From Bacteroidia bacterium (GTDB taxonomy: Bacteria; Bacteroidota; Bacteroidia; J057; JANRLA01), in the NCBI GenBank assembly GCA_033763015.1, contig JANRLA010000031.1, forward strand, positions 1 to 60,955: DNA of 60,955 nt. The letters are read 5' to 3'. Positions within the stretch are counted from its first letter, which is position 1. The number at the start of each line of letters is the position of its first letter. Below the pieces are notes generated by a model that had not been told where the DNA came from, ran no database searches, and saw only the letters and a list, made by a program, of their open reading frames with translations. Shown here one piece after another: positions 8,106 through 35,770 of the stretch. A program made the translations under genes and the position numbers.

Positions 8106-8136
8106 ACAACCTACCGGCAGGGTTGCCTGCCGAGAG

Positions 8137-8209
8137 AGCCACTAGGCGGACTCGAACCGCCGACCTATGCTTTACGAAAGCAGCGCTCTACCGGCTGAGC
8201 TATAGTGGC
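8137..8209 (-). tRNA. tRNA-Thr (anticodon CGT)
   Basis: The reverse complement GCCACTATAGCTCAGCCGGTAGAGCGCTGCTTTCGTAAAGCATAGGTCGGCGGTTCGAGTCCGCCTAGTGGCT folds as a cloverleaf. Anticodon loop TTCGTAA. Confidence 0.9.
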
Positions 8210-8225
8210 AACCGTAACCGGGCTG

Positions 8226-8233
8226 CAAATATA
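8226..8233 (-). promoter_or_regulatory. -7 box TATATTTG for the tRNA-Thr/tRNA-Gly transcription unit
   Basis: Perfect TAnnTTTG on the minus strand, 16 nt upstream of the tRNA-Thr 5' end. Confidence 0.45.
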
Positions 8234-8246
8234 CGCGCCTCGGGCA

Positions 8247-11567: not shown

Positions 11568-11593
11568 CGGGTAGGGGTTACGACAAGCGGCGA

Positions 11594-12523
11594 ATGAAGG
11601 GGGTGAAAAACCGACCGGAAGATAGGGACTGGGCCTTGGCCATAGACGCATTCTTGGCGCATTTGCGCATCGAGCGCGGCCTGAGCCCCCACACCCTAGA
11701 AAGCTATGGCCACGACCTGGCCGCCCTGGCGGGCTGGCTGGCCCAAACCACCCCCGTCCGCCTGGCCGAGCTGGCCCCGGTGCACATCCAACACTACCTG
11801 GAGCAGCTGGTAGACCAGCGGCAGCTCTCCGAGTTCAGCCAGGCGCGGGCCCTGAGCGCGCTGCGCACTTTCTTTCGGTACCTGGAGGCCGAGGGCCGGG
11901 TGCCAGTCAGCCCCCTGGCCCAGATCCGCAGCCCCAAGCTGCAGCGCAAGTTGCCCCGGGTGCTGAGCGTGGCCGATATAGATGCCCTGTTTGCGGGTAT
12001 AGATATGAGTACCGACGCTGGCACCCGTAACCGGGCCCTGCTCGAGCTACTCTACAGCAGCGGCCTGCGCGTGACCGAAGCGCTGACCCTGCCCATGCAC
12101 CACCTGTACCCCGACGAGGGCTTTGTGCGTGTGGTGGGCAAGGGCAACAAAGAGCGCATCGTGCCGGTAGGCGGCAGCGCCCTGCGCTACCTGGCGCTCT
12201 ACCGCACCGCCGTGCGTGTGCACCAGCAGCCCCAGAAGGGCGCGGCGGGCCTATTGTTCCTCAACCAGCGCGGGGGGCAGCTTAGCCGACAGCAGGTGTT
12301 TCTGGTGGTGCAGCAACTGGCGGCGCAGGCGGGCCTGGCCCCGCCGGTGAGCCCGCACACGCTGCGGCACTCGTTTGCCACGCACCTGATAGAAGGCGGC
12401 GCCGACCTACGGGCCGTGCAAGACATGCTGGGCCACGAGAGCATCCTAACGACCGAAATCTACCTGCACCTCGACCGCCAGTACCTGCGCGAAATCCACG
12501 CCCAGTACCACCCGCGGGGGTGA
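11594..12523 (+). CDS. xerD: site-specific tyrosine recombinase XerD
   Basis: SAM-like N-terminal domain (AIDAFLAHLRIERGLSPHTLESY). Catalytic motifs LYSSGLRVTE, HTLRHSFATHL and LGHESILTTEIYLH. Confidence 0.85.
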   Translation: MKGVKNRPEDRDWALAIDAFLAHLRIERGLSPHTLESYGHDLAALAGWLAQTTPVRLAELAPVHIQHYLEQLVDQRQLSEFSQARALSALRTFFRYLEAEGRVPVSPLAQIRSPKLQRKLPRVLSVADIDALFAGIDMSTDAGTRNRALLELLYSSGLRVTEALTLPMHHLYPDEGFVRVVGKGNKERIVPVGGSALRYLALYRTAVRVHQQPQKGAAGLLFLNQRGGQLSRQQVFLVVQQLAAQAGLAPPVSPHTLRHSFATHLIEGGADLRAVQDMLGHESILTTEIYLHLDRQYLREIHAQYHPRG

Positions 12524-14669: not shown

Positions 14670-17195
14670 ATGCAAATGCGGCTCAGGCTCAGCCTATTGG
14701 TATGTCTGGGGCTATGTGCCCTAGCCCCTGCTGTGCTGCAGGCGCAGCGGCTGGAGACACTGGCGGCTGTATTTCTGCAAGAGGAGGGCGATCGGGCACG
14801 GCCCCCCATCACCTACTTCGCGTTTCCGAACATCAACAAACTGCCGCTCTTTGTCGACAAAAAGCTGCGGCGCGACATCGACGCGGCCCGTAGCCAGAAC
14901 GACCTCGACCAACTCGAACTCCTGCTCACCACCTACGTGCGGCAGTTTGGCATCCAGAACTTCAAAGACCCCGACGACCTGTCGCTGATCTGGGAGCTGG
15001 GCCAGGTAAAAGAACTGCGCGGCGACACCGCCCGGGCGGCCCTGTTCTACACCATTGCCCTGAAAAACCAGAGCCGCTGGGCCGATAGCATTTCGGTGCG
15101 CCTGGAGGGCATTACGGCCCCCAAAGCCTCGCGGTTTGTAGACCTCGACTACTACTACCAGCTCGTTGCCGCCCGCCAGTCGGTAGATACCCTCAAGCCG
15201 CCCAAGGGCGTGCACATCAACGTGGGCAAGCAGGTAAACACCCCGGCGCCGGAGTACGCCCCCTACATGCACCCCTCGGGCGACGTGCTGCTCTTCACGA
15301 GCCGACGCGGCGGGCTCGACCTCGACGCCCCGGCCCAGGAGCAGAACGAAGACATCTACTACACCCAGCGCAACCCCTTCACGAACAAGGGGTGGGAGTA
15401 CGCCCAGCGCCTGCCCGATGTCATCAACAGCCCCTTCAACGAGGGCTCGGCCTGCGTAGACTCGAGCGGGCTGTACCTGGTTTTTTCGCGCTGCAACAGC
15501 CCCGACGGCCTGGGCGTGTGCGACCTCTACCAGGCGCGCTGGGTTGAAGGCGAGTGGGTGGAGGTCGAAAACCTGGGCCCAACGGTAAACTCAGACGCCT
15601 GGGACAGTCACCCGTACCTCACCGCCGACCAGCAGTACCTTTTCTTCGCCTCTAACCGCAGCGGGGGCTTTGGCGGCATAGACCTCTACATGTGCCGCAA
15701 AGACGCCCGGGGGCGCTGGCTTGCGGCCGAAAACCTGGGCCCCATCGTCAATACCTTCTACGATGAGGTGTCGCCCTACCTACACCCCATCAACAACACG
15801 CTCTACTTCGCGTCCACTGGGCACCTGCACAACCTGGGGGGCTTCGATATCTTCAAGAGCCGCTGGGTGTACCACCACTGGGAGGAGCCCCGCAACCTGG
15901 GCCCCCTGGTCAATTCGCCCCAGGACGAATACTACTTCTCGATTGATGGCAAGGGCGAAAACCTGTTTTTCAGCCATGCCCTCAAGGGCCAGCCCCGCAA
16001 CTTCGACATCTTCAGCTACCCCATGCCCATCGACGCCCGGCCCGACGCTGTGGTCGAGTTCAAGGGCTACCTCATCGATTCGCTAACGGGCAACCCCCTA
16101 ACGGGCATCGTGGCGGCGATAGACCTGGACAAAGGCGCCGAGATCACCCCGAAGTACATCAGCCCCACGGGCTACTTTGAGTTCAGCCTTGTCAACAACC
16201 GGCGCTACCTCTTGGTGGTTATCGGCGAAAACCTGCTGACGGTCGAAGACCTGGCGCTGGAGCTCGATTCCCTGAACCACGTGCTGGTGCGCAGTGCGCT
16301 TGACCGCCAGGCGATCGTCTTCCGGCAGGTTGAGTTTGACAAGAACAGTACCGAGGTGCACCCGAGCGACCTGGGGCTGCTGCGCCAGATTGGCACCTTC
16401 TTGGCCGAGCACCCCTACGCCACGCTCACCATCCGGGGCCATACTGACGGCGAGGGTGATGCGGGCTACAACCTGCGGCTCTCGCGCCGACGGGCCGAGA
16501 CGATCCGCGAAACGCTCTTGAGCCTGGTAGACCTGCCGCCCGAGGTGGTGGTGGCCGAGGGCTACGGCGAGAGCCGGCCCATATTCCCGAACGACACGAA
16601 AGAGAACCGGGCCAAGAACCGGCGCGTGGAATTCCGCATCGAAATACCCGATAGCTACCGCGCCCAGCTGCTGGCCGAAGCCGCGCCCGACTACGTACCG
16701 CTGGAGCCGCTGGCCGGTGCCGAGCCGCTCACGCCCACCGACCCGGCCCCCACCGAGCCCAGCCTGACCGACCCGGCAGCACCCCCGGGGCCCACGGTTT
16801 CGACCGACCCGGCCCCGACGCTCCCCACGCCGGCACCCCCTACGACACCCCCAGCCACCGAACCCACACCTGCGTTTGGCGACGATCTGGACGACTGGGG
16901 CGACTTTGAGGGCTTCGACGACCTTGACTTTGGCTTCAGCGACGATGAATTGGATGCCCTGGAGGGCGAGCTCGGCGAGAGCGACCTGCTGGACATCGAA
17001 AGCGTCACGGCCGACATCTTGGACGAAGAAGCCGAGGAGGACGAAGACGACCTGCTGCGCGAGCCCAAAGAAACCCCCAGCCCGTCCACGCCCGGTAGCC
17101 CTGCCCAGACCACCCCTGCCAAGCCCACGGCCCCCAAGCCCACCCCTGCCCCCGCCGATACCACCCGCAAGCCACCCCCCAAGAAGGGCAGCTAA
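14670..17195 (+). CDS. OmpA-family outer-membrane/peptidoglycan-associated protein with PD40 (TolB-like) repeats and a long disordered C-terminal tail
   Basis: Signal peptide and several PD40-like repeats (LLFTSRR, LVFSRCN, LFFASNR, LYFASTG). OmpA_C motif TIRGHTDGEGDAGYNLRLSRRRAE...NRRVEFRI. A ~185-aa Pro/Thr- and Asp/Glu-rich extension follows. Confidence 0.85.
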   Translation: MQMRLRLSLLVCLGLCALAPAVLQAQRLETLAAVFLQEEGDRARPPITYFAFPNINKLPLFVDKKLRRDIDAARSQNDLDQLELLLTTYVRQFGIQNFKDPDDLSLIWELGQVKELRGDTARAALFYTIALKNQSRWADSISVRLEGITAPKASRFVDLDYYYQLVAARQSVDTLKPPKGVHINVGKQVNTPAPEYAPYMHPSGDVLLFTSRRGGLDLDAPAQEQNEDIYYTQRNPFTNKGWEYAQRLPDVINSPFNEGSACVDSSGLYLVFSRCNSPDGLGVCDLYQARWVEGEWVEVENLGPTVNSDAWDSHPYLTADQQYLFFASNRSGGFGGIDLYMCRKDARGRWLAAENLGPIVNTFYDEVSPYLHPINNTLYFASTGHLHNLGGFDIFKSRWVYHHWEEPRNLGPLVNSPQDEYYFSIDGKGENLFFSHALKGQPRNFDIFSYPMPIDARPDAVVEFKGYLIDSLTGNPLTGIVAAIDLDKGAEITPKYISPTGYFEFSLVNNRRYLLVVIGENLLTVEDLALELDSLNHVLVRSALDRQAIVFRQVEFDKNSTEVHPSDLGLLRQIGTFLAEHPYATLTIRGHTDGEGDAGYNLRLSRRRAETIRETLLSLVDLPPEVVVAEGYGESRPIFPNDTKENRAKNRRVEFRIEIPDSYRAQLLAEAAPDYVPLEPLAGAEPLTPTDPAPTEPSLTDPAAPPGPTVSTDPAPTLPTPAPPTTPPATEPTPAFGDDLDDWGDFEGFDDLDFGFSDDELDALEGELGESDLLDIESVTADILDEEAEEDEDDLLREPKETPSPSTPGSPAQTTPAKPTAPKPTPAPADTTRKPPPKKGS

Positions 17196-17241
17196 CCCCG
17201 CTTCGGCGTACTTTGCGCCCTCTATTCTCGGCCTACCTACT

Positions 17242-18051
17242 ATGAACAACCTACTGAGCGGGAAAACCGGCATCATCACCGGCGCACTCGACGAATCTTC
17301 GATCGCCTGGCAGGTAGCCCTCAAGGCCCATGCCCAGGGCGCACGCATTTTGCTGACCAACGCCCCGGTGGCGATGCGCATGGGCGCCATCCGCGAGCTG
17401 GCCCAGACGATTGGGGCCGAAGTGGTGCCCGCCGATGCCACGAGCCTGGAAGACATTGGCAAGCTCTACGACGCGGCCGAGGCCCAGTTTGGCAAGATTG
17501 ACTTCCTCTTGCATTCCATCGGCATGTCGCTCAACGTGCGCAAGGGGCGCGAGTACACCGACCTGAACTACGACTTCTTGCAGAAGACGTACGATATCTC
17601 GGCTGTCTCGTTCCACAAGATGCTGCAGGTGGCCTACCAGCGGGGGCTGTTTAACCCCTGGGGTAGCATTGTGGGGCTGACCTACATCGCGGCCCAGCGT
17701 ACGTTCCCGAAGTACAACGATATGTCGGAGAGCAAGGCCCTGATTGAGAGCATGGCCCGCACGTTCGGCTACTACTACGCCAAGAAGTACCAGGTACGGG
17801 TGAATACCGTAAGCCAGAGCCCTACGCCCACCACGGCAGGCTCGGGTGTGGCGGGTTTCGATGCCATGCTCAAGTACGGCGAGGCCATGAGCCCACTGGG
17901 TAACGCCACGGCCGCCGAATGCGCCGACTACGTGATTACCCTCTTCAGCGACCTGACGCGCAAGGTGACGATGCAGAACCTGTACCACGACGGGGGCTTT
18001 TCGGCCACCGGTGTAAGCGAGGAGGTCTTGGCGGCCTTTGGCGAGGGCTAG
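17242..18051 (+). CDS. fabI: enoyl-[acyl-carrier-protein] reductase (FabI type)
   Basis: MNNLLSGKTGIITGALDESSIAW N-terminus and an SDR fold. ORF 16876..18051 trimmed to the ATG at 17242. The upstream part overlaps the OmpA tail out of frame. Confidence 0.9.
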   Translation: MNNLLSGKTGIITGALDESSIAWQVALKAHAQGARILLTNAPVAMRMGAIRELAQTIGAEVVPADATSLEDIGKLYDAAEAQFGKIDFLLHSIGMSLNVRKGREYTDLNYDFLQKTYDISAVSFHKMLQVAYQRGLFNPWGSIVGLTYIAAQRTFPKYNDMSESKALIESMARTFGYYYAKKYQVRVNTVSQSPTPTTAGSGVAGFDAMLKYGEAMSPLGNATAAECADYVITLFSDLTRKVTMQNLYHDGGFSATGVSEEVLAAFGEG

Positions 18052-18055
18052 CACG

Positions 18056-19408
18056 GTGAGTGGTTTCGACCCCCTGCTGGCGATTTCGCCGCTCGACGGC
18101 CGGTACCGGTCGGTGACCGAGCCGCTGGCCGATTACTTCTCAGAGTTCGCCCTCATCCGGGCGCGGCTGTGGGTCGAGTGCCAGTATTACCTGGCCCTGG
18201 CCGAGGTGGTGCCCCAGCTGCAGGGCCTATCCGAAGACGTGCGGGCAGTGTTTGAGCTCCTGCCCCAGGAGTTTGGCCTTGCCCAGGCCCAGGCGGTCAA
18301 AGCCCACGAGCAGACCACCCGGCACGATGTGAAGGCCCTGGAGTACTTTATGAAAGACCAGCTCGCGCGGCTGGCCTTCTACCAGGCGGCCCCACAGCTG
18401 CTCGAGTTCATCCACTTTGGCCTTACCAGCCAAGACATCAACAACACAGCGACACCCCACCTGCTCAAGGGTGCCATCGTAGGGTGCTACCTGCCCCGCC
18501 TCGATGCCGTGCTGGGTCAGCTAAACTCAATGGCTCAACGGTACGCGGCCCTACCCATGCTGGCCCGCACCCACGGGCAGCCTGCCAGCCCCACCACGCT
18601 GGGCAAAGAGCTGGCCGTGTTTGCCAGCCGCCTAGCCACCCAGCGCGCTTCGCTCGTTGCGTTGCCCTATCCGGCCAAGTTTGGCGGGGCCACTGGGGGC
18701 TTCAACGCCCATTATGCGGCCTACCCGGGGGTAGATTGGCAGGCCTTTGCCGACCGCTTCGTGGCACGCCTGGGCCTACAGCGCAGCCGCCCCACGACTC
18801 AGATTGAGCACTACGACGGTCTGGCGGCGATCTTCGACAACCTCAGGCGCATCAACGTCATCTTGATCGACCTGGCGCGCGACGTATGGCAGTACATCGC
18901 ACTGGGGTACTTCCGCCAGCCGACCGTGGCGGGCGAAATCGGCTCTTCGGCCATGCCGCACAAGGTGAACCCCATCGACTTTGAGAATGCCGAGGGCAAC
19001 CTGGGCCTGGCCAATGCCTTGCTGGACCACCTGAGCAACAAACTGCCCATCTCACGCTTGCAGCGCGACCTCACCGACAGCACCGTGCTCCGCAACCTGG
19101 GGGTGCCCCTGGGCCACACCTACCTCGCACTGCGCAACCTGGAGGTGGGCCTGGGCAAGCTGGCGGTAAACGAGGCGCGGCTCCACGAAGACCTTGAGGC
19201 CAACTGGGCGGTTGTCGCCGAGGGGATACAGACCATTCTGCGGCGCGAGGGCTACCCCAAACCCTACGAGGCGCTGCTGGCGCTCACCCGCGGCGCGGTG
19301 GTCGACCAGGCGGCTATTTCGGCCTTTATTGATGGGCTCGAGGTGCCCCCTGGGGTCAAGGCCGAGCTTAGGGCCCTCACGCCCTTTACCTACCTGGGCC
19401 GGGCCTAG
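18056..19408 (+). CDS. purB: adenylosuccinate lyase
   Basis: SPLDGRY N-terminal motif and the fumarate-lyase signature GSSAMPHKVNP. The GTG at 18056 gives an N-terminus of canonical length. The TTG at 18038 would overlap fabI. Confidence 0.92.
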   Translation: MSGFDPLLAISPLDGRYRSVTEPLADYFSEFALIRARLWVECQYYLALAEVVPQLQGLSEDVRAVFELLPQEFGLAQAQAVKAHEQTTRHDVKALEYFMKDQLARLAFYQAAPQLLEFIHFGLTSQDINNTATPHLLKGAIVGCYLPRLDAVLGQLNSMAQRYAALPMLARTHGQPASPTTLGKELAVFASRLATQRASLVALPYPAKFGGATGGFNAHYAAYPGVDWQAFADRFVARLGLQRSRPTTQIEHYDGLAAIFDNLRRINVILIDLARDVWQYIALGYFRQPTVAGEIGSSAMPHKVNPIDFENAEGNLGLANALLDHLSNKLPISRLQRDLTDSTVLRNLGVPLGHTYLALRNLEVGLGKLAVNEARLHEDLEANWAVVAEGIQTILRREGYPKPYEALLALTRGAVVDQAAISAFIDGLEVPPGVKAELRALTPFTYLGRA

Positions 19409-19418
19409 CGCTACCGCC

Positions 19419-20876
19419 GTGGCCAGCCCCCCCGATGCCATCAGTCTGGCCGCACGGTTTGTGCGGGCCCTGGGCTTTGAGCCCACCCACGACCAACGCC
19501 GGGCGTTCGAGGCTGTGGCGCGGCTGCTGCTCACCCAAGAGGCCGGGGCCTGCCTGGTGCTGCAAGGGGCCGCCGGTACGGGCAAAACCAGCCTTCTGAA
19601 AGCCGTGGTGGCCGTGCTCTACGAGCTCGAGGCCCACGTGGTGCTCATGGCGCCCACCGGCCGGGCGGCCAAGGTGCTCGCGGGGCGCACGGGGCAGGAG
19701 GCCAGCACGCTGCACAAAGTCATTTACGATACCGAGACCAGCCTATCGGGCAGTGTGCGCTACCGCCCCCGGCGCAACAGCGACCCCCAAGACGCGGTGT
19801 ACATCGTAGACGAAGCCTCGATGATTGGCGAGGACCGGGGCGAAAGCGGCGGCAGCCTGCTGCACGACCTGGTGGGGTATGTGTACGGCGAAGAACCTGG
19901 CCGGAAACTCATCTTTCTGGGCGACCCCTACCAGCTACCCCCCGTTGGTGCCCCCGATTCGCCCGCGTTGGCCGTGAGCTACCTGCGGCGCAACTACGGG
20001 TTGGTGGCCGGGAAGGTGCAGCTTACCGAGGTGCGCCGCCAGGGTGTGGGCTCGGGCATCTTGCAGGTAGCTACGGCCCTGCGCGAGGCCCAAGACCGGG
20101 TGCGCGAGGCCGGCGAGGTAGGGCCGCTGCCCACCGTACCGCACCTGCCCGATGTGCTGGCCCTGCCCGATACCCAGGCGGTGGTTGATACGTTTTTAGA
20201 GCGCTACGACCCCGACGACCCCGACAGCGTGGTTGCGGTGTGCTACAGCAACGGCATCGCGGCCCAGTTAAACGCCGCCATCCGCCAACGGCTCTACGAC
20301 GACCCCGAGCCGCTGGTGAAAGGCGACCGGGTCATGGTCGTAAAGAACTTTTACCGGCAGTCGTTTCACGCCCTGCCTTTCATTGCGAACGGCGACATGG
20401 GGCTCGTCACCCGCACCTTCCCCGAAACGGCCGACGAGAAGTTTGGCCAGCGCTGGTTAGAGGCGTTGGTCGCGTTCCAGGAGCCCAGTGGCCGGGTGGT
20501 CGACCTTTCGGCCACCGTGCCTACCTCGTTGCTGCTGGGTAAAGCCCCCAACCTGACCAGCGCCGAGCTGAAAGCTATCTGGGACGGGCGGCTCGAAGAA
20601 CTGGCCCGGGCATCGGACAAGAAGCCCGACCGCAAAGACCTGAAGGCCGACCCCTACCTCGGGGCATTGCAACTCAAATTCGGGTACGCCATCACGGGCC
20701 ACAAGGCCCAGGGCGGCCAGTGGCGTACCGTCATCGTGGTCTTTGAACCCTACCTGGTGAACCGACACCTGGCCGAAGATCCCGTGGGCTTCTTGCGCTG
20801 GAGCTACACGGCCCTTACCCGTGCCAGCGAGGTGCTGTACCTCTACAACAGCCCTTTTGGCGCAGTGGGAACTTAG
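19419..20876 (+). CDS. RecD-like (AAA_30 / UvrD_C_2) ATP-dependent DNA helicase
   Basis: Walker A GAAGTGKTS, Walker B YIVDEASMIG, and C-terminal GYAITGHKAQGGQW and YTALTRASEVLYLY. There is no in-frame ATG after the purB stop, so the GTG at 19419 is proposed. Confidence 0.8.
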   Translation: MASPPDAISLAARFVRALGFEPTHDQRRAFEAVARLLLTQEAGACLVLQGAAGTGKTSLLKAVVAVLYELEAHVVLMAPTGRAAKVLAGRTGQEASTLHKVIYDTETSLSGSVRYRPRRNSDPQDAVYIVDEASMIGEDRGESGGSLLHDLVGYVYGEEPGRKLIFLGDPYQLPPVGAPDSPALAVSYLRRNYGLVAGKVQLTEVRRQGVGSGILQVATALREAQDRVREAGEVGPLPTVPHLPDVLALPDTQAVVDTFLERYDPDDPDSVVAVCYSNGIAAQLNAAIRQRLYDDPEPLVKGDRVMVVKNFYRQSFHALPFIANGDMGLVTRTFPETADEKFGQRWLEALVAFQEPSGRVVDLSATVPTSLLLGKAPNLTSAELKAIWDGRLEELARASDKKPDRKDLKADPYLGALQLKFGYAITGHKAQGGQWRTVIVVFEPYLVNRHLAEDPVGFLRWSYTALTRASEVLYLYNSPFGAVGT

Positions 20877-26671: not shown

Positions 26672-27517
26672 ATGTTTACCTCGCCGCAGGAGTTAGACCT
26701 CGAACTTGATCGGGATGAGCTCGATCGGTTCATCCACGAAGTACGCGCCAAGTACAGCTACGACTTTGCCAACTACGCCCAGTCGTCGTTCAAGCGGCGG
26801 GTAGCCATGGTGCTCAAAAAGCACGGCATCAAGAGCCTGAATTACCTGACCGACCGGGTGCTGGCCGATGCCGTTTTTTTTGACCAGGTACTCCTCGACA
26901 TCACGGTCAATACGACCGAGATGTTCCGTGACCCGACCTTCTGGAAGTACCTACGCCTATATGTATTGCCTGAGCTGGCCAAGCGGCCCGAGCTCGCCAT
27001 CTGGCATGCCGCCTGCTCCAGTGGCGAGGAGGTGCTTTCCATGGCCATTCTACTCAAAGAAGAGGGCCTCTTCGACCGGGCACGGGTCTACGCCACCGAC
27101 ATCAACCATAAGGTACTTAAGCGTGCGGCCGACGGGCGTTACGCTGCGCGCAACCTTGAGCTGTTCCGCACCAATTACCTGGCCACGGGCGCCAAGACCC
27201 AACTGGAGGCGTACTACCAGTTGCAGGGGGGCGACCCGGTGTTTGACCGCGGGCTGCTCGAGCGGGTAAACTTTCGGCCCCACGACCTGGCGTTAGATGG
27301 GTCGTTTGGCAAGTTCGACCTCGTTTTTTGCCGGAACGTGATGATCTATTTCAACCAGACGCTGCAAAACCGGGTATTTGAACTGCTGCACGACAGCCTG
27401 TTTCTGGGCGGCTTTTTGGCCCTGGGCGCCAAAGAGAGCCTGATCTGGTGCCGTATCGCCGATAAGTTTCAGACCGTAAGCGACCACGAAAAGATCTACC
27501 GCAAGCTGCGGGCCTAG
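26672..27517 (+). CDS. CheR-type protein-glutamate O-methyltransferase
   Basis: CheR N-terminal helical domain, TEMFRDP, and SAM-binding IWHAACSSGEEVLSMAI and FCRNVMIYF. Confidence 0.88.
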   Translation: MFTSPQELDLELDRDELDRFIHEVRAKYSYDFANYAQSSFKRRVAMVLKKHGIKSLNYLTDRVLADAVFFDQVLLDITVNTTEMFRDPTFWKYLRLYVLPELAKRPELAIWHAACSSGEEVLSMAILLKEEGLFDRARVYATDINHKVLKRAADGRYAARNLELFRTNYLATGAKTQLEAYYQLQGGDPVFDRGLLERVNFRPHDLALDGSFGKFDLVFCRNVMIYFNQTLQNRVFELLHDSLFLGGFLALGAKESLIWCRIADKFQTVSDHEKIYRKLRA

Positions 27518-27523
27518 TACGCC

Positions 27524-28156
27524 ATGATTGTCATTGGCAGCCCCAGCGGCAGCAGCAAACCCAATGTGCTGGGCGACCTGACCGAAGCCCGGGCCCGTGT
27601 GCAGGTGGTGCTCATCGGCGGTTCGGCGGGCAGCTTCAGCGTTACCCACCGGTTGTTGGAGCAGTTGCCGGCCGATTACCGCCTGCCCGTTGTGGTGGTC
27701 TTGCACCGGCTGAAAGACAAACGGGAGGGCTTTAAAGAGGCCCTGCAGATCCGCACCCGTGTAGTGGTGGAAGAGCCCGACGACAAGACCCTTGTCGAAC
27801 CCGGCAAGGCGTACATCGCACCGGCGAACTACCACCTGCTCTTCGAAACCCCCCAGCAACTGGCACTGGCGACGACCGAGTTGGTGCAGTTCTCGCGGCC
27901 CTCGATCGATGTGCTCTTCGAGTCGGCCGCCGATGTGCTGGGGCCCCGTGTGCTGGCCATTTTGCTCTCGGGGGCCAACCGCGATGGGGCAGCGGGCATG
28001 TACCGCATTGGCCGACGGGGTGGTTTTTTGGCGGTGCAGGACCCCGCCGATGCTGCCATGCCCACCATGCCGCAAGCGGCGCTGCAGCTTAGTAAGCCCA
28101 CCTGGACGCTCCCCGAATACCAATTGGCCGAGCTGCTGTGCGGATTGCAGGCCTGA
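27524..28156 (+). CDS. CheB-type protein-glutamate methylesterase, catalytic domain only (no receiver)
   Basis: VVLIGGSAGSF, VVVLHRL, AYIAPANYHL, SRPSIDVLFESAA and LSGANRDGAAG. At 210 aa there is no room for a REC domain. Confidence 0.85.
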   Translation: MIVIGSPSGSSKPNVLGDLTEARARVQVVLIGGSAGSFSVTHRLLEQLPADYRLPVVVVLHRLKDKREGFKEALQIRTRVVVEEPDDKTLVEPGKAYIAPANYHLLFETPQQLALATTELVQFSRPSIDVLFESAADVLGPRVLAILLSGANRDGAAGMYRIGRRGGFLAVQDPADAAMPTMPQAALQLSKPTWTLPEYQLAELLCGLQA

Positions 28157-28305
28157 GCCGTGCTACTTTTTGTGCCCAAACATTCGTTTCAGGTGCCTTT
28201 TTTCACATTTTTAGGGGCCCGCGATTTCATCTGCCGTGGCTATGTGGATAACACGTGGGCGAAACAAAGTCATTTTACAGGCCAGAGGAACGGGGTTGTT
28301 TTTTG

Positions 28306-28313
28306 TATATTCG
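28306..28313 (+). promoter_or_regulatory. candidate -7 box TATATTCG upstream of the SiaB/SiaC-like cassette
   Basis: Lies 65 nt upstream of the ATG at 28379 in a 222-bp T-rich spacer after cheB. Confidence 0.35.
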
Positions 28314-28378
28314 TCGCAACTTCGCCTCTCCCAACGATTTAGCCCTCGGCTTGTAACGCCGTATCGCTCCCCGAGCTC

Positions 28379-28969
28379 ATGAACGACACGCCGGCAGTGC
28401 CACATACGTCCGACGAAAGACAGCTGTCTTTTACGTACCCTACGTTTAAGGACATGCAGGACAACAATGTGATATTTGTTTACAAAGGCATTGTCAATTC
28501 TGACCTCGTGACGCATGTCCTGGAGATGATGTCCGAAAAAATGGAAGAGGACAAACAGGATCGCAGGTTATCGAAAAAGGTGTTTAACGTGATGGTAGAA
28601 TGCCTTACCGGCGCCTACACCGACGAAGCGCTGGAGGGCAAAGAAGGCTACGACCCCACCACGGTGCTGCTCGTTAAGCGCGACGACACCGCCTATGTAG
28701 TGGCCACCGGGTACTACATCCACAACCCCAAGGTGCAGACCATCAAGCACATGCTCGACCGCATCAACGGCATGAGCATCGAGGAGATGAAAGAGTTTTA
28801 CCAGGAAGTTATCAGCCGCGAAGACCCCGGGGCTACTGGCTTCACTGATCTGGCGATTATAGACCTGGCGCGGAAAAGCAAACACAAGCTTCAATACCAG
28901 TTCAAGTACATCTCGCCAGAGTTTACGTTCTTCAGCCTCGAATCGAGGATATCACAGCAAAGTCTCTAA
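28379..28969 (+). CDS. SiaB-like (DUF6272-type) putative protein kinase, copy 1
   Basis: NNVIFVYKGIVNSDLVTHVLEMM and KKVFNVMVECL resemble the SiaB/anti-sigma-kinase-like family that partners with DUF1987 proteins. It is a paralogue of 29443..29991. Confidence 0.65.
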   Translation: MNDTPAVPHTSDERQLSFTYPTFKDMQDNNVIFVYKGIVNSDLVTHVLEMMSEKMEEDKQDRRLSKKVFNVMVECLTGAYTDEALEGKEGYDPTTVLLVKRDDTAYVVATGYYIHNPKVQTIKHMLDRINGMSIEEMKEFYQEVISREDPGATGFTDLAIIDLARKSKHKLQYQFKYISPEFTFFSLESRISQQSL

Positions 28970-28993
28970 TTTTACGCCAAACACCCACGGGTT

Positions 28994-29377
28994 ATGCTAG
29001 AGCCGCTCAAAATTGAACCCACCCACAAGACCCCTAAGGTCTACCTGGATCCCGCCGAAAATCATTTCGAGCTCAGTGGGCGTTCCATCCCCGAAGATTC
29101 GGTTGGTTTCTACCAGCGAATCCTCGGTTGGATCGATGAGTATGCCCAGAGCCCAAACGCTAAGACAGACTTCAAGTTTGAGCTGGAGTACTTCAACACG
29201 AGCTCCTCGAAGAACATCCTCGAGCTGCTCAAGAAGCTCGAGAGCATTCACAACGACGGCCACCCGGTCAATATCACCTGGTACTACGATGAGGATGACG
29301 AGGACATGGAGGAAACGGGACAGGACTACAAGGCCCTGCTCAACGTACCCATTGAGCTAATTGTGAAAGTATACTAG
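28994..29377 (+). CDS. SiaC-like (DUF1987) regulatory phosphoprotein, copy 1
   Basis: PKVYLDPAENHFELSGRSIPED, EYFNTSSSK and ITWYYDEDDEDMEETG are hallmark DUF1987 motifs. Confidence 0.8.
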   Translation: MLEPLKIEPTHKTPKVYLDPAENHFELSGRSIPEDSVGFYQRILGWIDEYAQSPNAKTDFKFELEYFNTSSSKNILELLKKLESIHNDGHPVNITWYYDEDDEDMEETGQDYKALLNVPIELIVKVY

Positions 29378-29442
29378 GTACTACCTACCAGTCCGGCCCA
29401 AACTACCAAGCTAAACTACCCAGCTAACTACATCGTCCTGCC

Positions 29443-29991
29443 ATGACGTACAGCTATTACAAGAACATGCAGCTGAACAACATCATTTTCGTCTACCAGG
29501 GCGAAGTGACAGCTGACTTGGTCTCCTCCATACTGCACATGATGGAAAACAAGCTGGATGGCGACGGTGAGGACAAAAAAATCAAGAAGAAGGTCTTCAA
29601 CGTGATGGTAGAGTGCCTCCAAAACGTCTACCACCACCTGGATACCCTGCCCGTAGGCCAAGTAGAAACCGACATCAACGACCGCACCGCGCTACTGATG
29701 ATCGGCAAAGAAGAGAAAGACTACTACGTGATTACCGGCAACCACATTGAGAACGACCGGATCAACGACCTGAAACGCAAGCTGGAGCGGGTAAACCAGG
29801 CCGACAAGCAGGAGCTCAAGGCGCTGTACCAGGAAATCCTTTCCAACGAATCGTTTTCTGAGAAAGGCACTGCAGGTTTGGGCATGATCGACATTGCCCG
29901 CAAGAGCGGCCAGAAACTTGGGTACGACTTCCACCCCGTGAACGAAAAATATTCGTTCTTTAGCCTCGAAGCCAAGGTATCCCGCGTGTAA
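29443..29991 (+). CDS. SiaB-like (DUF6272-type) putative protein kinase, copy 2
   Basis: NNIIFVYQGEVTADLVSSILHMMENKL, KKVFNVMVECLQNVYHH and GLGMIDIARKSGQKL. Confidence 0.7.
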   Translation: MTYSYYKNMQLNNIIFVYQGEVTADLVSSILHMMENKLDGDGEDKKIKKKVFNVMVECLQNVYHHLDTLPVGQVETDINDRTALLMIGKEEKDYYVITGNHIENDRINDLKRKLERVNQADKQELKALYQEILSNESFSEKGTAGLGMIDIARKSGQKLGYDFHPVNEKYSFFSLEAKVSRV

Positions 29992-30047
29992 TTTCAACGA
30001 GTCAAAAACCCGGTTCTACCTCCACCAGCGCGCAATACTTACCCCGG

Positions 30048-30422
30048 ATGAGAAACCTGATTATTGAGCCCACGGCCAAGACCCCTAAAGTGATCCTGAA
30101 TGCGGATATCAACGTGTTCGAGATCACCGGGCGCTCCATTCCCGAGGACTCCATTGGTTTTTACCGCAAGATCCTGGACTGGGTCGACGAGTACGGACAA
30201 AGCCCCAACCCGCGTACCAACTTCAAGTTTGAGCTGGAATACTTCAACACCAGTTCGTCTAAGTGCCTGCTGGACCTGTTCCGTAAGCTTGAAAAGCTCT
30301 ACAAAAGCGGCCATGACGTAGAAATTACGTGGTGCTACGACGCCGACGATGAGGATATGGAGGAAACCGGCGAGGACTACAAAGCCCTGCTCGACGCCCC
30401 CTTCAACCTGGTTTCGGTGTAA
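30048..30422 (+). CDS. SiaC-like (DUF1987) regulatory phosphoprotein, copy 2
   Basis: PKVILNADINVFEITGRSIPED, EYFNTSSSK and ITWCYDADDEDMEETG. By eye it is roughly 60 percent identical to copy 1. Confidence 0.8.
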   Translation: MRNLIIEPTAKTPKVILNADINVFEITGRSIPEDSIGFYRKILDWVDEYGQSPNPRTNFKFELEYFNTSSSKCLLDLFRKLEKLYKSGHDVEITWCYDADDEDMEETGEDYKALLDAPFNLVSV

Positions 30423-30443
30423 GCCTGGTACAGATTTTGTAGC

Positions 30444-30472
30444 AAAAACGCGTAGTCACCCTACGCGTTTTT
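30444..30472. terminator. rho-independent (bidirectional) terminator ending the SiaB/SiaC cassette
   Basis: AAAAA-CGCGTAG-TCACC-CTACGCG-TTTTT. Confidence 0.6.
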
Positions 30473-30493
30473 GCGTAAGTGATGGCTGTGGAA

Positions 30494-30501
30494 TACTTTT
30501 G
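30494..30501 (+). promoter_or_regulatory. -7 box TACTTTTG
   Basis: Perfect TAnnTTTG, 70 nt upstream of the ATG at 30572. Confidence 0.4.
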
Positions 30502-30571
30502 CGGAACGCAAGGCATCCCACACCTGTATACTTGCACTAATTACTTTACCACCTAGCTCAGGTCACACCCG

Positions 30572-31021
30572 ATGGAACTCAAGTCCAAGAAAAAAGCCGA
30601 CGCTTTTGCAGTTGAAATCGAGTTCTTGACTGAAGCGCGCGCGCGCCTCGATACGCTTTCTTCGGCCGATGAACTCCGTAGCGCGTATGCTACGGTACTC
30701 GAAGAGTACGAGAAACTGCTCGAAGAGAGCAAGTTTTTGACCAAAGTGTCAGACAAGCTCGAGTCGAAGCTGAACTCGGCCAACGAGCAGCTCAAAAAAT
30801 ACAACCAAGAGCTGCAGTCTGAAACCGAAGTTGCGCGCACCCAGAAAGATAAAGTACTCGAGAAGAACAAGCAGCTCTACCAGGAGAAGTCTGAGCTTGA
30901 CTACCGGATGAACCGGTTCCAGCTTACGCTCATTATTCTTATCGCCGTTCTGGTGGTGATTATCTTGATCATGCTGTACTACTTCTACTTCAAGGACAAG
31001 CTGATGCCTGCCAGCCGGTAA
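30572..31021 (+). CDS. tail-anchored coiled-coil protein
   Basis: About 110 aa of heptad-like Glu/Lys/Leu-rich sequence, then a single C-terminal TM helix LTLIILIAVLVVIILIMLYYFYF. It has its own promoter and terminator. Confidence 0.65.
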   Translation: MELKSKKKADAFAVEIEFLTEARARLDTLSSADELRSAYATVLEEYEKLLEESKFLTKVSDKLESKLNSANEQLKKYNQELQSETEVARTQKDKVLEKNKQLYQEKSELDYRMNRFQLTLIILIAVLVVIILIMLYYFYFKDKLMPASR

Positions 31022-31030
31022 CCAACACAG

Positions 31031-31056
31031 GGCCCTCGGCAGCGAGGGCCTTTTTT
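31031..31056 (+). terminator. rho-independent terminator
   Basis: GGCCCTCG-GCAG-CGAGGGCC followed by TTTTTT. Confidence 0.65.
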
Positions 31057-31133: not shown

Positions 31134-31355
31134 ATGTATTGGACTCTTGAGCTGGCTTCTCACCTGGAGGACGCCCCCTGGCCTGCCACCCGCGACGAGC
31201 TAATTGACTATGCACTGCGTACCGGCGCACCGTTAGAGGTGGTCGAAAACCTGCAGGAACTCGTCGAAGACGATACCCCCTACGAGAGCATCGAGGAGAT
31301 CTGGCCCGACTACCCTACCAAAGAGGACTTCCTCTTCAACGAAGACGAGTATTAG
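31134..31355 (+). CDS. DUF2795 domain protein
   Basis: The 73-aa acidic protein contains WPATRDELIDYALRTGAPLEVVENLQEL, typical of DUF2795. Confidence 0.7.
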   Translation: MYWTLELASHLEDAPWPATRDELIDYALRTGAPLEVVENLQELVEDDTPYESIEEIWPDYPTKEDFLFNEDEY

Positions 31356-33727: not shown

Positions 33728-33800
33728 GCCTCCTTAGCTCAGTTGGTAGAGCTACTGATTTGTAATCAGTAGGTCGCTGGTTCGAGTCCGGCAGGGGGCT
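33728..33800 (+). tRNA. tRNA-Thr (anticodon TGT)
   Basis: GCCTCCTTAGCTCAGTTGGTAGAGCTACTGATTTGTAATCAGTAGGTCGCTGGTTCGAGTCCGGCAGGGGGCT folds as a cloverleaf. Confidence 0.9.
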
Positions 33801-33932
33801 CAAGAAACGGGCAACGGCCCACTTAGCCTCGGCGCGCCGGGGTACGTTCTTTCACAGTCAGCAGCCAGGGGTACGGCCAGTCGTTGTAGGCTACCCAGTG
33901 GGCAACGTGGGTCAACCCGCGCAGACAAGTAG

Positions 33933-34015
33933 GGGAAGGTGCCGGAGCGGTCAAACGGAGCAGACTGTAAATCTGCCGGCGTCAGCCTACGGGGGTTCGA
34001 ATCCCTCCCTTCCCA
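33933..34015 (+). tRNA. tRNA-Tyr (anticodon GTA)
   Basis: Type II tRNA with a long variable arm. Anticodon loop CTGTAAA and T-arm GGGGGTTCGAATCCCTC. Confidence 0.88.
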
Positions 34016-34070
34016 CTCATACCGCGTTGGTTCACCTAGGGTACAGACGCTCGCCCTAGGGTTTACACCC

Positions 34071-34143
34071 GCGGGAGTAGCTCAGTTGGTAGAGCTTCTG
34101 CCTTCCAAGCAGAATGTCGCGAGTTCGAGTCTCGTCTCCCGCT
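34071..34143 (+). tRNA. tRNA-Gly (anticodon TCC)
   Basis: GCGGGAGTAGCTCAGTTGGTAGAGCTTCTGCCTTCCAAGCAGAATGTCGCGAGTTCGAGTCTCGTCTCCCGCT folds as a cloverleaf. Confidence 0.9.
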
Positions 34144-34253
34144 CGTTCGGTCCTAGCCCACTTCAGCCTATCCAATGGTAGGGCTGTAACCCTGGCGGCT
34201 TTTCCAAGTCGGTGCTGTGCCCCGTTGCGGGTCATTCGCACGCCTTGCAATAA

Positions 34254-34328
<75 letters not shown>

Positions 34329-35694: not shown

Positions 35695-35770
<76 letters not shown>

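Follow-up and report, generated by a model that had tools for sequence, protein, structure and literature searches.

The locus reported here can be compared with described systems of Pseudomonas aeruginosa and Bacillus cereus. In the former, residue roles have been assigned for the N67-T68-S69 region of SiaC (PMC8457831), as well as for SiaC T68 and the SiaD stalk (PMC8457831, PMC7647112), T68 being contacted by S82/Q86 and S50/Q54 of SiaD (PMC8457831). In the latter, methylation by the CheR-type RsbM falls on the S-helix behind the GAF domain in RsbK, and a REC-PP2C and a partner switch follow downstream (PMC4574943). The original prediction for the present DNA had regarded reversible glutamate methylation and Ser/Thr phosphorylation partner switching as chemistries that are not normally linked; RsbM/RsbK/RsbY of B. 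cereus (PMC4574943) is a precedent, and the two have therefore been linked before. Our literature search found no paper describing the Bacteroidota signalling operon treated below, for which we computed here which genes are present, which motifs are kept or lost, the synteny, the fusion of the module to SiaC and the SiaD-stalk similarity.

Gene content of the cluster

Within the window (i.e. the whole analysed stretch of 60,955 nucleotides from a Bacteroidia bacterium, contig JANRLA010000031.1) seven ORFs occupy positions 26672-31021, all of them on the + strand and with the coordinates and domains originally predicted; every one of the assignments to CheR, CheB, SiaB and SiaC was upheld by HMM searches. 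These genes and the associated features are:

26672-27517, + strand: CheR-type protein-glutamate O-methyltransferase (281 aa; CheR_N and SAM-binding domain)
27524-28156, + strand: receiver-less CheB methylesterase (210 aa)
28157-28378, + strand: non-coding gap of 222 bp, where relatives carry a GAF or PEBP gene plus a sensor PP2C
28379-28969, + strand: SiaB1, fast-evolving SiaB-family paralog, probable pseudokinase (NF038262)
28994-29377, + strand: SiaC1, DUF1987/SiaC phosphoprotein with YFNTSS (PF09345)
29443-29991, + strand: SiaB2, canonical SiaB-family Ser/Thr kinase (NF038262)
30048-30422, + strand: SiaC2, SiaC phosphoprotein with YFNTSS (PF09345)
30442-30474, + strand: terminator-like hairpin after SiaC2 (14-bp stem including an A5/T5 run)
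30494-30501, + strand: TACTTTTG, a -7 box of the TAnnTTTG type (pattern search of intergenic regions)
30572-31021, + strand: tail-anchored coiled-coil protein (149 aa), proposed SiaC-docking output partner
30707-30784, + strand: codons 46-71 of the coiled-coil gene, YEKLLEESKFLTKVSDKLESKLNSAN, aligning to the SiaC-binding motif of SiaD (…KVARISDRYQQMM…)
31029-31052, + strand: intrinsic-terminator-like hairpin with a T-run, closing the coiled-coil gene
31134-31355, + strand: DUF2795 gene (PF11387 at 1.6e-17)
50317-52086, + strand: REC-GAF-PP2C (SpoIIE) phosphatase, 19 kb downstream (Pfam)

CheR (PF01739 at 1.7e-39; PF03705, CheR_N, at 9e-8) has the CheR proteins of B. subtilis and P. aeruginosa as its nearest solved structures, and its motifs (TVNxTEMFRD, IWHAxCSxGEE, ATDI and CRNVMIYF) show no change across 10 orthologs. 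CheB, which starts 6 bp past the CheR stop, matches PF01339 (8e-46) over residues 29-204, and the Pfam scan found no Response_reg domain in it; when it is aligned with CheB proteins of solved structure, the catalytic Ser (in GGSAGS), His (in LHR) and Asp (in RDGA) come to lie in the triad regions, the triad being unchanged in 10 orthologs, and the CheR/CheB junction is covered by one metatranscriptome contig (from a relative). With both predicted active sites intact, the two enzymes would carry out reversible glutamate methylation as adaptation or gain control of an input sensor. In keeping with the original prediction, the domain scan detected no MCP, CheA, CheW, histidine kinase or GGDEF domain in the cluster or in the scanned window ORFs of at least 180 aa; within the cluster, neither a phosphatase nor an EExxA[ST]-bearing protein was found.

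The coiled-coil gene does possess a -7 box and a terminator of its own, as had been proposed: TAnnTTTG is the Bacteroidota -7 promoter consensus, the TACTTTTG box at 30494 lies 71 bp upstream of the coiled-coil ATG, and the hairpin at 31029-31052 follows the gene. The hairpin after SiaC2 (-25 kcal/mol, z -3.57) was equalled in folding by 0 of 200 shuffles. Because this hairpin and the promoter-like box split SiaC2 from the coiled-coil gene, and the 222-bp gap splits CheB from SiaB1, the block may, judging by these elements, comprise three transcription units.

Conservation of the locus

The appearance of separate transcription units would suit a chance juxtaposition of two small operons, functionally unrelated in every lineage. 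We regard this reading as scarcely credible, since it is contradicted by synteny: SiaB-SiaC lies a few kb downstream in all 14 examined loci with this receiver-less CheB subfamily (CheB identity to the window CheB 46% to 100%), i.e. the CheR/CheB–SiaB/SiaC adjacency, whose conservation had been left to a gene-neighbourhood check, is upheld throughout. Moreover, genes overlap or pack tightly in loci L007 and L109, and a methylation-type motif (see below) is confined to CheR/CheB loci. When entered from the CheB side (L087-L093, L109 and L110, Catalinimonas alkaloidigena and Thermonema lapsum among them), the comparison revealed SiaB-SiaC downstream in 9/9 sampled CheB homologs, with a GAF gene and a sensor PP2C between CheB and SiaB in seven of these loci. 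When entered from the SiaB side, it showed that the four closest species-level genomes all keep CheR-CheB…2×SiaBC-coiled-coil, and that in three of them CheB is followed, in a tightly packed operon, by PEBP and a GAF-PAS-PAS-SpoIIE gene (907 aa), after which comes SiaB1. Altogether, a large sensor PP2C phosphatase sits between CheB and SiaB in 10/14 loci.

The block from CheR to the coiled-coil gene is intact in four subclade genomes (window, L088, L008 and L087), and the genes around it are different in L087 and, for L008, on the side of CheR (the L008 contig stops about 0.7 kb past the coiled-coil gene). As the block recurs in diverged genomes with different flanks, we consider that it was not chance that brought these genes together. 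The DUF2795 gene adjoins the block in the window, L088 and L087 (on the opposite strand in L087), its product being 92% identical in L088 and 89% in L087; no such gene was found beside the L007 block, and whether it is part of the system is uncertain.

These comparisons indicate that the order of the parent operon is CheR – CheB – (small GAF protein) – multidomain sensor PP2C phosphatase – SiaB kinase – SiaC phosphoprotein. The cluster holds no sensor gene in the window's subclade, and the composite island of the original prediction appears to have been derived, by reduction, from a larger operon with a sensor PP2C.

Two unequal SiaB/SiaC pairs

Both SiaB proteins match the SiaB_fam_kinase profile NF038262, SiaB1 (DUF6272) at 115.5 bits against a cut-off of 85 and SiaB2 at 171.7 bits. 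SiaB2 matches P. aeruginosa SiaB (6kko_A) at 6e-17, with the QN and AGLG..DIARKS motifs in common. In SiaB1 the family's ECLQN reads ECLTGA, and the family's KG[TG][AG]GLG[MF]ID reads TGFTDLAIID; the glycine-rich ATP-binding-type motif is missing in 6/6 aligned SiaB1 orthologs, and identity to L088 is 61% for SiaB1 versus 91% for SiaB2 (EF-Tu 85%). As SiaB1 lacks conserved kinase-family motifs, the two pairs, which the original prediction had counted as one pair present twice, are not equivalent. SiaB1 is probably a pseudokinase that, with the glycine-rich loop and here also the Asn of ECLQN lost, would most likely bind or sequester SiaC1 without catalysis.

SiaC1 (PF09345 at 1.4e-42) matches P. 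aeruginosa SiaC structures, and the alignment of SiaC2 (PF09345 at 2.4e-43) to PDB SiaC spans the N67-T68-S69 region; the YFNTSS phospho-acceptor motif is kept in both, and the Thr motif is conserved in 94/94 SiaC homologs. The SiaB2/SiaC2 junction is covered by a metatranscriptome contig with 0 mismatches. In the tree, SiaC1 and SiaC2 form sister clades, and the two Sia pairs were therefore produced by an old tandem duplication.

The coiled-coil protein as proposed output partner

A profile search with the 149-aa coiled-coil protein gave no significant family match. AlphaFold2 predicts a helix at residues 3-28 and then one continuous helix at 32-144, whose C-terminal part (112-144) is hydrophobic. 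The family alignment reveals a conserved N-terminal module (F12, E15, L19, Y46-E-x-L-L and L-T-K-V-S60-D61-K-L-E-x-K-L-N), whose profile finds its top PDB match in the SiaD stalk (7e6g_A, E 0.007); the alignment takes in both SiaC-binding motifs, and the score of 23 bits compares with a maximum of 9.9 bits among 2000 shuffles. The match is short and of modest significance (E 0.007 to 0.02; best single-domain i-E 0.05-0.4), and spurious sequence matches arise easily between coiled coils.

Among 25 loci with the module, it is fused to SiaC in one and located immediately downstream of SiaC in 22, while in metagenome loci SiaC is immediately upstream in 11/13; in L007, L009 and L010 the coiled-coil gene is translationally coupled to SiaC2. 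The module is also present at the N-terminus of small histidine kinases encoded just after SiaC (operon context SpoIIE-SiaB-SiaC-[module-HisKA-HATPase-REC]-Hpt-REC), and the fusion to SiaC has the context SiaB-[SiaC~module-TM]; two module–histidine kinase fusion loci are orphans, without SiaC nearby. On account of the SiaD-like SiaC-binding motif, the fusion of the module to SiaC and its presence on SiaC-adjacent histidine kinases, we argue that the coiled-coil protein is most likely the output partner of the switch, equivalent to the SiaD stalk.

The substrate of CheR/CheB

The original prediction had CheR/CheB methylate a target such as the coiled-coil protein and so tune the partner switch. 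Since CheR/CheB–SiaB/SiaC adjacency is conserved, the general idea of methylation tuning the switch is plausible; its choice of target fares less well, the sensor phosphatase being likelier. In relatives this sensor, encoded between CheB and SiaB, has the architecture dCache-HAMP-GAF-[helix with QNAEEMQATQEEL]-PAS-PAS-PP2C, and an MCP-like EExxAT motif is found in its GAF-to-PAS linker in 5/7 more distant loci. The pattern EE[LMI]x[AST][TS]xEE[LIM] matches 8 ORFs, every one in a CheR/CheB locus (seven from all ORFs of 95 loci and the window, the eighth being the L110 sensor, checked separately); the strict motif is absent from the L007-type, L090 and L109 sensors. The motif points to the sensor PP2C phosphatase, rather than the coiled-coil protein, as most likely the CheR/CheB substrate.

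Direct methylation of the coiled-coil protein or of a Sia protein, which would yield a minimal methyl-accepting membrane protein tuning the switch, seems improbable to us: the motif search found no EExxA[ST]-type site in the coiled-coil protein, its conserved part resembles the SiaC-binding motif of SiaD and not an MCP adaptation region, its family follows SiaC without CheR/CheB in many loci (L017, L029, L080, L094 and L096-L106), and 7 loci have CheR/CheB and SiaBC without it. These points outweigh, in our view, that in the window, L088, L008 and L087 the Sia and coiled-coil genes are the only conserved neighbours of intact CheR/CheB, and that the protein is Glu/Gln-rich with NEQL/NQEL heptads (family member P0273 has TNEEL repeats that resemble those in the CheB-CheR-PAS-HK fusion).

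As the sensor gene is gone from the subclade's cluster, substrate and phosphatase must be encoded elsewhere. It is rather unlikely, we consider, that with this loss CheR/CheB became functionally uncoupled from the Sia module and have since acted on some unrelated sensor encoded elsewhere (a rare MCP, say, or a PAS histidine kinase whose helix is of the TNEEL type), so that the genes are neighbours only as a relic of history. Consistent with such a relic, the CheB–SiaB1 gap is not conserved among the window, L088, L008 and L087, and blastx of its 222 bp detected no protein remnant; CheR and CheB (59-64% identical to L088) evolve far faster than SiaB2, SiaC1 and SiaC2 (87-91%, versus 85% for EF-Tu and 38-50% for flanking genes); and CheB-CheR fusions to PAS histidine kinases also exist in Bacteroidota (e.g. 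6 kb upstream in L089). Nevertheless, the block holds in all four subclade genomes despite the differing flanks, CheR/CheB remain above the flanking housekeeping genes in conservation, and SiaBC accompanies this CheB subfamily in 14/14 loci. The REC-GAF-PP2C is a candidate for a phosphatase of the SiaA type that would act in trans: its PP2C domain is 38-44% identical to PP2Cs whose genes immediately precede SiaB in other Bacteroidota, and its tie to the cluster is one that we infer.

Proposed mechanism and comparison with known systems

The biochemical steps, the methyl acceptor and the output partner that we infer are as follows. On the model of the homologous SiaABC system of P. aeruginosa, SiaB2 would phosphorylate the conserved YFNTSS Thr of SiaC1 and/or SiaC2, a PP2C phosphatase (in the window's subclade, with the sensor gene gone, possibly the product of 50317-52086) would strip the phosphate, and unphosphorylated SiaC alone would dock onto the coiled-coil stalk of its target. 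Here the target would be the tail-anchored coiled-coil protein, whose oligomeric state or partners would be altered by SiaC binding. As a whole, the best explanation, which we hold with moderate confidence, is that the cluster descends from a conserved Bacteroidota operon, of which it is a version particular to this lineage, rearranged, reduced and in part duplicated; in it, a SiaBC switch would act on a coiled-coil output and CheR/CheB would methylate a sensor.

In P. aeruginosa the target, SiaD, is a diguanylate cyclase, whereas the target proposed in the window is a tail-anchored coiled-coil protein, which has on its long helix one copy of [IV]-S-D-[KR]-[LY]-[QE], the same motif that is bound by SiaC on the SiaD stalk. 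In B. cereus, the RsbM/RsbK/RsbY system (PMC4574943) links a PP2C partner-switch cascade with methylation of the CheR type.

Gene content and transcriptional layout of the island

Profile searches upheld the domain assignments of the original prediction (CheR, CheB, two SiaB-family and two SiaC/DUF1987 proteins), and all seven of the plus-strand open reading frames that it had delimited are present, as follows:

26672-27517, +, CheR (PF01739 at 1.7e-39, plus CheR_N)
27524-28156, +, CheB, catalytic domain only (210 aa; PF01339 at 8e-46, residues 29-204; no receiver domain)
28379-28969, +, SiaB1 (NF038262, 115.5 bits, cut-off 85)
28994-29377, +, SiaC1 (PF09345 at 1e-42)
29443-29991, +, SiaB2 (NF038262, 171.7 bits, cut-off 85)
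30048-30422, +, SiaC2 (PF09345 at 2e-43)
30572-31021, +, coiled-coil protein (149 aa; no family match in profile searches)

CheB begins 6 bp past the end of CheR, SiaB1 is preceded by a gap of 222 bp, and a strong hairpin stands directly past SiaC2. The coiled-coil gene has, as had been proposed, a -7 box of its own (TAnnTTTG type, TACTTTTG at 30494) and its own terminator, and the island is probably organised as three transcription units (cheR-cheB, the four sia genes, and the coiled-coil gene). In three related loci (L007, L009 and L010) these genes are densely packed and overlap one another. Contigs from relatives were found in only one metatranscriptome, from leaf litter; they are short and span the CheR/CheB junction and, without mismatch, that between SiaB2 and SiaC2; these contigs are weak evidence of expression, across two junctions only, and may stem from DNA carry-over. 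No MCP, CheA, CheW, histidine kinase or GGDEF protein was found among the scanned window ORFs of at least 180 aa; the first reading of this DNA had noted their absence for the cluster.

The host lineage (uncultured Bacteroidia) occurs in hot-spring, sediment and sludge metagenomes. The GC content of the island stretch is lowered (52% vs 62%), and since the drop lies at codon positions 1 and 2 (GC3 0.69-0.75, as in EF-Tu and NusG) it reflects amino-acid composition and not foreign origin; horizontal transfer was rejected as its cause. A gene for a 73-aa DUF2795 protein (window 31134-31355) adjoins the block in the window and in the related loci L088 and L087 (on the opposite strand in L087), and its product, 89-92% identical across L088/L087, is conserved above EF-Tu. 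A tRNA cluster (Thr-Tyr-Gly-Thr, window 33728-34328) lies upstream of tuf, which is followed by tRNA-Trp (35695-35770) and then by secE-nusG-rplKAJL-rpoBC; the island stands directly upstream of this highly conserved region in both the window and L088. The window also encodes a tyrosine recombinase (11558-12523; Phage_integrase with a SAM-like N-terminal domain, possibly XerC/D-type) and a serine recombinase (58936-60540; 534 aa, Resolvase domain).

Conservation of the CheR/CheB-SiaB/SiaC association

The gene neighbourhood was surveyed from both of its sides. With the SiaB2 alignment as query (one genome per species, 80 loci), CheR-CheB together with both Sia pairs and the coiled-coil gene was found only in the four closest loci (SiaB2 77-82% identical), while in the remaining 76 (46-55% identical) there is only one SiaB-SiaC pair, and CheR/CheB are absent within 10 kb. 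Of the four close loci, three carry, between CheB and SiaB1, a PEBP gene and a gene for a 907-aa GAF-PAS-PAS-SpoIIE (PP2C) protein, have tight or overlapping gene spacing and encode two coiled-coil paralogs 3' of SiaC2. Upstream of SiaB, most distant loci likewise encode a PP2C. In three Cytophagales-type loci it is a protein of ~605 aa (TM-HAMP-PP2C in the two copies scanned, the layout of P. aeruginosa SiaA), with SiaB, SiaC and a coiled-coil homolog after it; elsewhere it is a Reg_prop/Y_Y_Y sensor phosphatase. In its most frequent Bacteroidota form the module additionally has, between the Reg_prop/Y_Y_Y sensor PP2C and SiaB, a conserved Pfam-less protein of 255-300 aa (e.g. L016 9157-9924, L075 9064-9906 and L060 9087-9962, with ~30 further loci).

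From the CheB side, the best 120 homologs of the window protein are all single-domain (147-226 aa), and SiaB-SiaC was encountered a few kb downstream of CheB in all nine loci examined from among them, which were picked by the length of their contigs. Two of these (L087 and L088) have the layout of the window; the other seven (L089 Catalinimonas alkaloidigena, L090 Thermonema lapsum, L091-L093, L109 and L110) are arranged as CheR-CheB-GAF protein-large sensor PP2C-SiaB-SiaC, with dCache_1, HAMP, GAF, PAS and SpoIIE domains in the sensor. The adjacency of CheR/CheB and SiaB/SiaC is thus conserved in relatives: with the window and L007-L010 included, SiaBC is present in 14 of 14 loci and an intervening sensor phosphatase in 10 (L007, L009, L010, L089-L093, L109 and L110). 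No MCP, CheA or CheW gene was detected within ±8-10 kb in nine related loci.

The flanking genes are unlike among the CheR/CheB-SiaBC loci, which argues that the association is selected and not accidental, and that the window has, judging from these gene orders, a derived and reduced form of the operon. The same synteny contradicts a chance juxtaposition of CheR/CheB and Sia genes. That the adjacency is a relic in the subclade of the window is possible, yet such a reading fits poorly with a block kept across four genomes with differing flanks. A blastx search of the 222-bp CheB-SiaB1 gap revealed no trace of lost sensor or GAF genes.

In five of the seven CheR/CheB-sensor loci (L089, at 16441-19620, L090, L091, L093 and L109) SiaC is followed by a gene for an ABC_tran-ABC2_membrane protein of ~1020-1070 aa, with a weak N-terminal TerB match in three of the five; it is a candidate for an alternative SiaC output in these loci. 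In Catalinimonas alkaloidigena and Thermonema lapsum it occupies the position that the coiled-coil gene has in the window, a gene that both species lack.

Duplication and divergence of the Sia pairs

The clades of SiaC1 and SiaC2 are sisters and mirror each other in internal branching, a pattern from which we conclude that a tandem duplication of the Sia pair took place in the clade's common ancestor. As to the descent of the pair itself, neighbour-joining trees gave no resolution between the CheR/CheB-type pair (NTASS subtype) and the general type (NTSSS). Both SiaC copies keep YFNTSS, and none of the 94 homologs collected lacks YFNT[SA]SS. In P. aeruginosa, SiaB phosphorylates SiaC on the threonine of this motif (T68), and T68 touches the SiaD stalk along with N67 and S69 (PMC7647112, PMC8457831). 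Since SiaC1 and SiaC2 score below the NCBIfam SiaC equivalog cut-off (86.5 and 88.8 vs 150), and the window SiaB proteins also fall below the corresponding SiaB cut-off, we regard the four proteins as family members and not as orthologs in function.

The two SiaB copies differ in their kinase-family motifs. SiaB2 keeps ECLQN and KG[TG][AG]GLG[MF]IDIARKS, which are common to the Bacteroidota homologs and to P. aeruginosa SiaB (6kko_A). The glycine-rich motif is replaced in the SiaB1 orthologs of all six genomes aligned, and the window SiaB1 has lost the Asn of ECLQN as well, so that both motifs are missing. On account of this loss, and by analogy with GHKL-type anti-sigma kinases, SiaB1 has probably become a pseudokinase while retaining the ability to bind SiaC. 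A Bacteroidales MAG (L109, 5751-6894) has two tandem SiaB genes ahead of one SiaC, and by a simple pattern check ECLQN occurs in the first only and the G-rich motif in the second only, which suggests that SiaB duplication and degeneration are recurrent.

Relative to L088, SiaB2 (91% identity), SiaC2 (90%) and SiaC1 (87%) are more conserved than EF-Tu (85%), and SiaB1 (61%), CheR (64%), CheB (59%) and the flanking genes (38-50%) less so. Values of 87-91% point to an unusually strong constraint for small regulatory proteins, and SiaB2/SiaC conservation above that of EF-Tu suggests that the module controls something central in these bacteria.

The coiled-coil protein and its likeness to the SiaD stalk

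AlphaFold2 models the 149-aa protein as a short helix (3-28) and a long one (32-144) with a hydrophobic anchor at its end. An N-terminal module of ~90 residues (F12, E15, L19, Y46-E-x-L-L, L-T-K-V-S-D-x-L-x-x-K-L-N) is common to its homologs. Only 71 relatives came out of an exhaustive phmmer search that covered 1.84 billion representative proteins; a word-indexed search with the module alignment had returned 15 close relatives only, the kinase and SiaC fusions emerging from phmmer. Most relatives are tail-anchored proteins of 140-240 aa, and in some the module precedes HisKA-HATPase and, in certain of these, a receiver domain as well. One such hybrid kinase lies in an operon of the form SpoIIE-SiaB-SiaC-[module-HisKA-HATPase-REC]-Hpt-REC, and in P0282 (a protein of the module family, encoded 3' of a SiaB gene) a SiaC domain is fused directly to the module and a membrane anchor. 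A metagenome scan seeded on the module (three-sequence alignment) produced 13 loci, in 11 of which SiaC is immediately upstream on the same strand, the other two being orphan kinases.

Compared with 177,635 PDB sequences, the module profile found its best match in the SiaD chain of the SiaC-SiaD complex (7e6g_A, E 0.007). The alignment covers both SiaC-binding motifs of the SiaD stalk (RIARISDGFQ with S50 and Q54; KVARISDRYQ with S82 and Q86), and S60-D61 of the window protein aligns with SiaD S82-D83. With profiles of 11 and 84 sequences the stalk scored 23.0 and 18.2 bits, against maxima of 9.9 and 9.0 bits, respectively, over 2000 composition-preserving shuffles. Each of these lines of evidence is modest alone; taken together, they make it likely that the coiled-coil protein is a docking partner of SiaC, and it is likely the unphosphorylated form that would be bound; the protein would then hold the place of SiaD in Pseudomonas.

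An origin of the module as a copy of the stalks of neighbouring sensor PP2Cs was rejected, as the module HMM matched only its own family among all locus ORFs. Past the SiaC-docking-like motif, the tail-anchored homolog P0273 has heptad repeats (TNDKL/TNEEL/TNEEL/TNEKL) that resemble the helix repeats of CheB-CheR kinase fusions.

CheR/CheB and their likely substrate

The Ser/His/Asp regions of CheB and the SAM-binding motifs of CheR are invariant in ten orthologs, and both enzymes consequently look active. The MCP-type methylation consensus is absent from all island proteins of the window. The original prediction had considered direct methylation of the coiled-coil protein by CheR/CheB, an idea that is weakened on three counts: the coiled-coil protein also occurs without CheR/CheB, CheR/CheB also occur without it, and it has no consensus methylation site.

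The sensors encoded in relatives offer another candidate. Their layout is dCache-HAMP-GAF-[QNAEEMQATQEEL]-PAS-PP2C (no such sensor is encoded in the window cluster), and QNAEEMQATQEE[LI] occurs in the helix between GAF and the first PAS domain in five of the seven sensor PP2Cs of the distant loci. This motif contains Glu-Glu-x-x-Ala-Ser/Thr, the classical consensus of chemoreceptor methylation sites. A scan for EE[LMI]x[AST][TS]xEE[LIM] in all ORFs of 95 loci and the window retrieved seven proteins, all of them in CheR/CheB loci: four sensor PP2Cs (the fifth motif-bearing one, from L110, was examined separately), two extra sensors in L092 and one CheB-CheR-PAS-histidine-kinase fusion in L089. 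Whether the linker helix is the substrate of CheR/CheB in these relatives we consider an evenly balanced question; that CheR and CheB belong functionally to the Sia module is, in our judgement, probable.

The extra L092 sensors (5448-9166, directly upstream of CheR) are a GAF-PAS protein of 482 aa and a dCache_1-GAF protein of 738 aa; both carry the QNAEE[LM]QATQEE motif of the sensor PP2C, and by this resemblance may be additional CheR/CheB substrates. The L089 fusion (3620-7066; 1148 aa, CheB-CheR-PAS-HisKA_2-HATPase) is located, with an accompanying receiver gene, at a distance of 6 kb upstream from the CheR-CheB-sensor-SiaBC operon and contains a run of EELxxxNEEL heptads.

No SpoIIE/PP2C gene is present between 26672 and 31056. 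The window does encode a REC-GAF-SpoIIE (PP2C) phosphatase of RsbY/RsbU-like layout at 50317-52086, with a PP2C domain 38-44% identical to those of PP2Cs directly upstream of SiaB in other Bacteroidota; that it serves this cluster is only a guess. It is followed by LemA (52169-52768) and a TPM-domain gene (53220-54044).

A proposed signalling scheme

What we observed directly are sequence, synteny, the SiaC-module fusion and motifs, and from these we infer every biochemical step of the following scheme. The input would be a PP2C sensor phosphatase, encoded outside the window cluster, whose signalling helix is methylated by CheR and demethylated by CheB. SiaB2 would phosphorylate SiaC1 and/or SiaC2 on the motif threonine, the phosphatase would reverse this, and SiaB1 would act as a non-catalytic binder of SiaC. 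As output, unphosphorylated SiaC would dock on the stalk of the tail-anchored protein, altering its assembly or its partners. We regard a SiaB2/SiaC phosphorylation switch as very likely; the existence in this genome of a trans-acting sensor PP2C with a methylated helix is put forward tentatively.

With similar reserve, we would extend the scheme to a 'methyl-accepting phosphatase' pathway of Bacteroidota, in which a dedicated CheR/CheB pair would adapt a Cache/HAMP/GAF/PAS sensor PP2C by way of methylated Glu residues in its signalling helix, in the manner of a chemoreceptor but without CheA or CheW, and the sensor would drive a SiaB/SiaC Thr-phosphorylation switch. The reader of SiaC would be a portable module, a homolog of the SiaD stalk, set on varied effectors (tail-anchored membrane proteins, histidine kinases and cyclases), and the window would represent a variant with its sensor in trans and a pseudokinase paralog as a second regulatory layer.

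If this is true, CheR/CheB adaptation would no longer be confined to chemoreceptors and one Bacillus kinase but would include a Ser/Thr phosphatase partner switch, an extension that would cover a large non-flagellated phylum and help to explain the many orphan CheR/CheB genes of Bacteroidota. Moreover, the SiaC mechanism would be general, the stalk motif of one Pseudomonas cyclase being a portable docking module that is found on histidine kinases and small membrane proteins as well, and testable systems would be available in the cultured Catalinimonas alkaloidigena and Thermonema lapsum.

Comparison with known systems

Searches of the available literature found no account of CheR/CheB coupled to a SiaABC-type switch, which agrees with the original view that the arrangement is undescribed, and no description of SiaB/SiaC homologs in Bacteroidota or of DUF6272.

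With P. aeruginosa SiaABCD (PMC7647112, PMC8457831) the island shares its SiaB-family kinase, its DUF1987/SiaC phosphoprotein and the N-T-S phospho-acceptor motif in the latter, and its relatives encode a PP2C upstream of SiaB, including SiaA-like TM-HAMP-PP2C forms (L029 and L080). Unlike SiaABCD, it has no GGDEF output (none in the window ORFs scanned), its stalk leads into a membrane anchor (elsewhere into a histidine kinase), there are two SiaB/SiaC pairs, produced by duplication, with one kinase copy degenerate, and the window cluster lacks a phosphatase and has CheR/CheB attached.

In B. cereus, the CheR-type RsbM methylates the S-helix after the HAMP-GAF module of the sensor RsbK, thereby governing both a REC-PP2C phosphatase and the RsbV/RsbW partner switch (PMC4574943). 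The relatives of the island resemble this RsbK-RsbM-RsbY pathway (PMC4574943) in having a CheR-type gene beside a non-MCP sensor, with HAMP/GAF and then a candidate methylatable helix, and in a predicted signal route on which a PP2C phosphatase would feed a kinase/antagonist partner switch. The window, too, encodes a REC-...-PP2C protein of RsbY-like layout. On the other hand, the B. cereus sensor is a hybrid histidine kinase, whereas in the relatives it is the PP2C itself; the B. cereus methyltransferase is an orphan without esterase, whereas the island has both CheR and CheB; and the switch is SiaB/SiaC instead of RsbW/RsbV-STAS, with no sigma factor evident (the sole one in the window is a σ70-type gene at 58058-58924).

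In common with MCP-CheR-CheB adaptation, CheR has its N-terminal and SAM domains, the CheB catalytic domain has the Ser-His-Asp triad, and the relatives' sensor combines Cache-HAMP input with an EExxA(S/T) helix, but the MCP signalling domain, CheA and CheW are missing from the window ORFs scanned, and so is the receiver from CheB, the last of which would mean that there is no phosphorylation feedback. The host phylum is not known to have flagella. The CheB-CheR-PAS-histidine-kinase fusions of Bacteroidota and others (compared by architecture only, as we found no functional study of them) likewise put CheB and CheR to non-MCP use; there the enzymes are joined to a kinase, whereas in the island they are separate genes coupled to a phosphatase/partner-switch module. 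What appears to be new is the combination of CheR/CheB with a SiaABC-type switch, the parts and the logic being known from SiaABCD, RsbK/RsbM and chemoreceptor adaptation.
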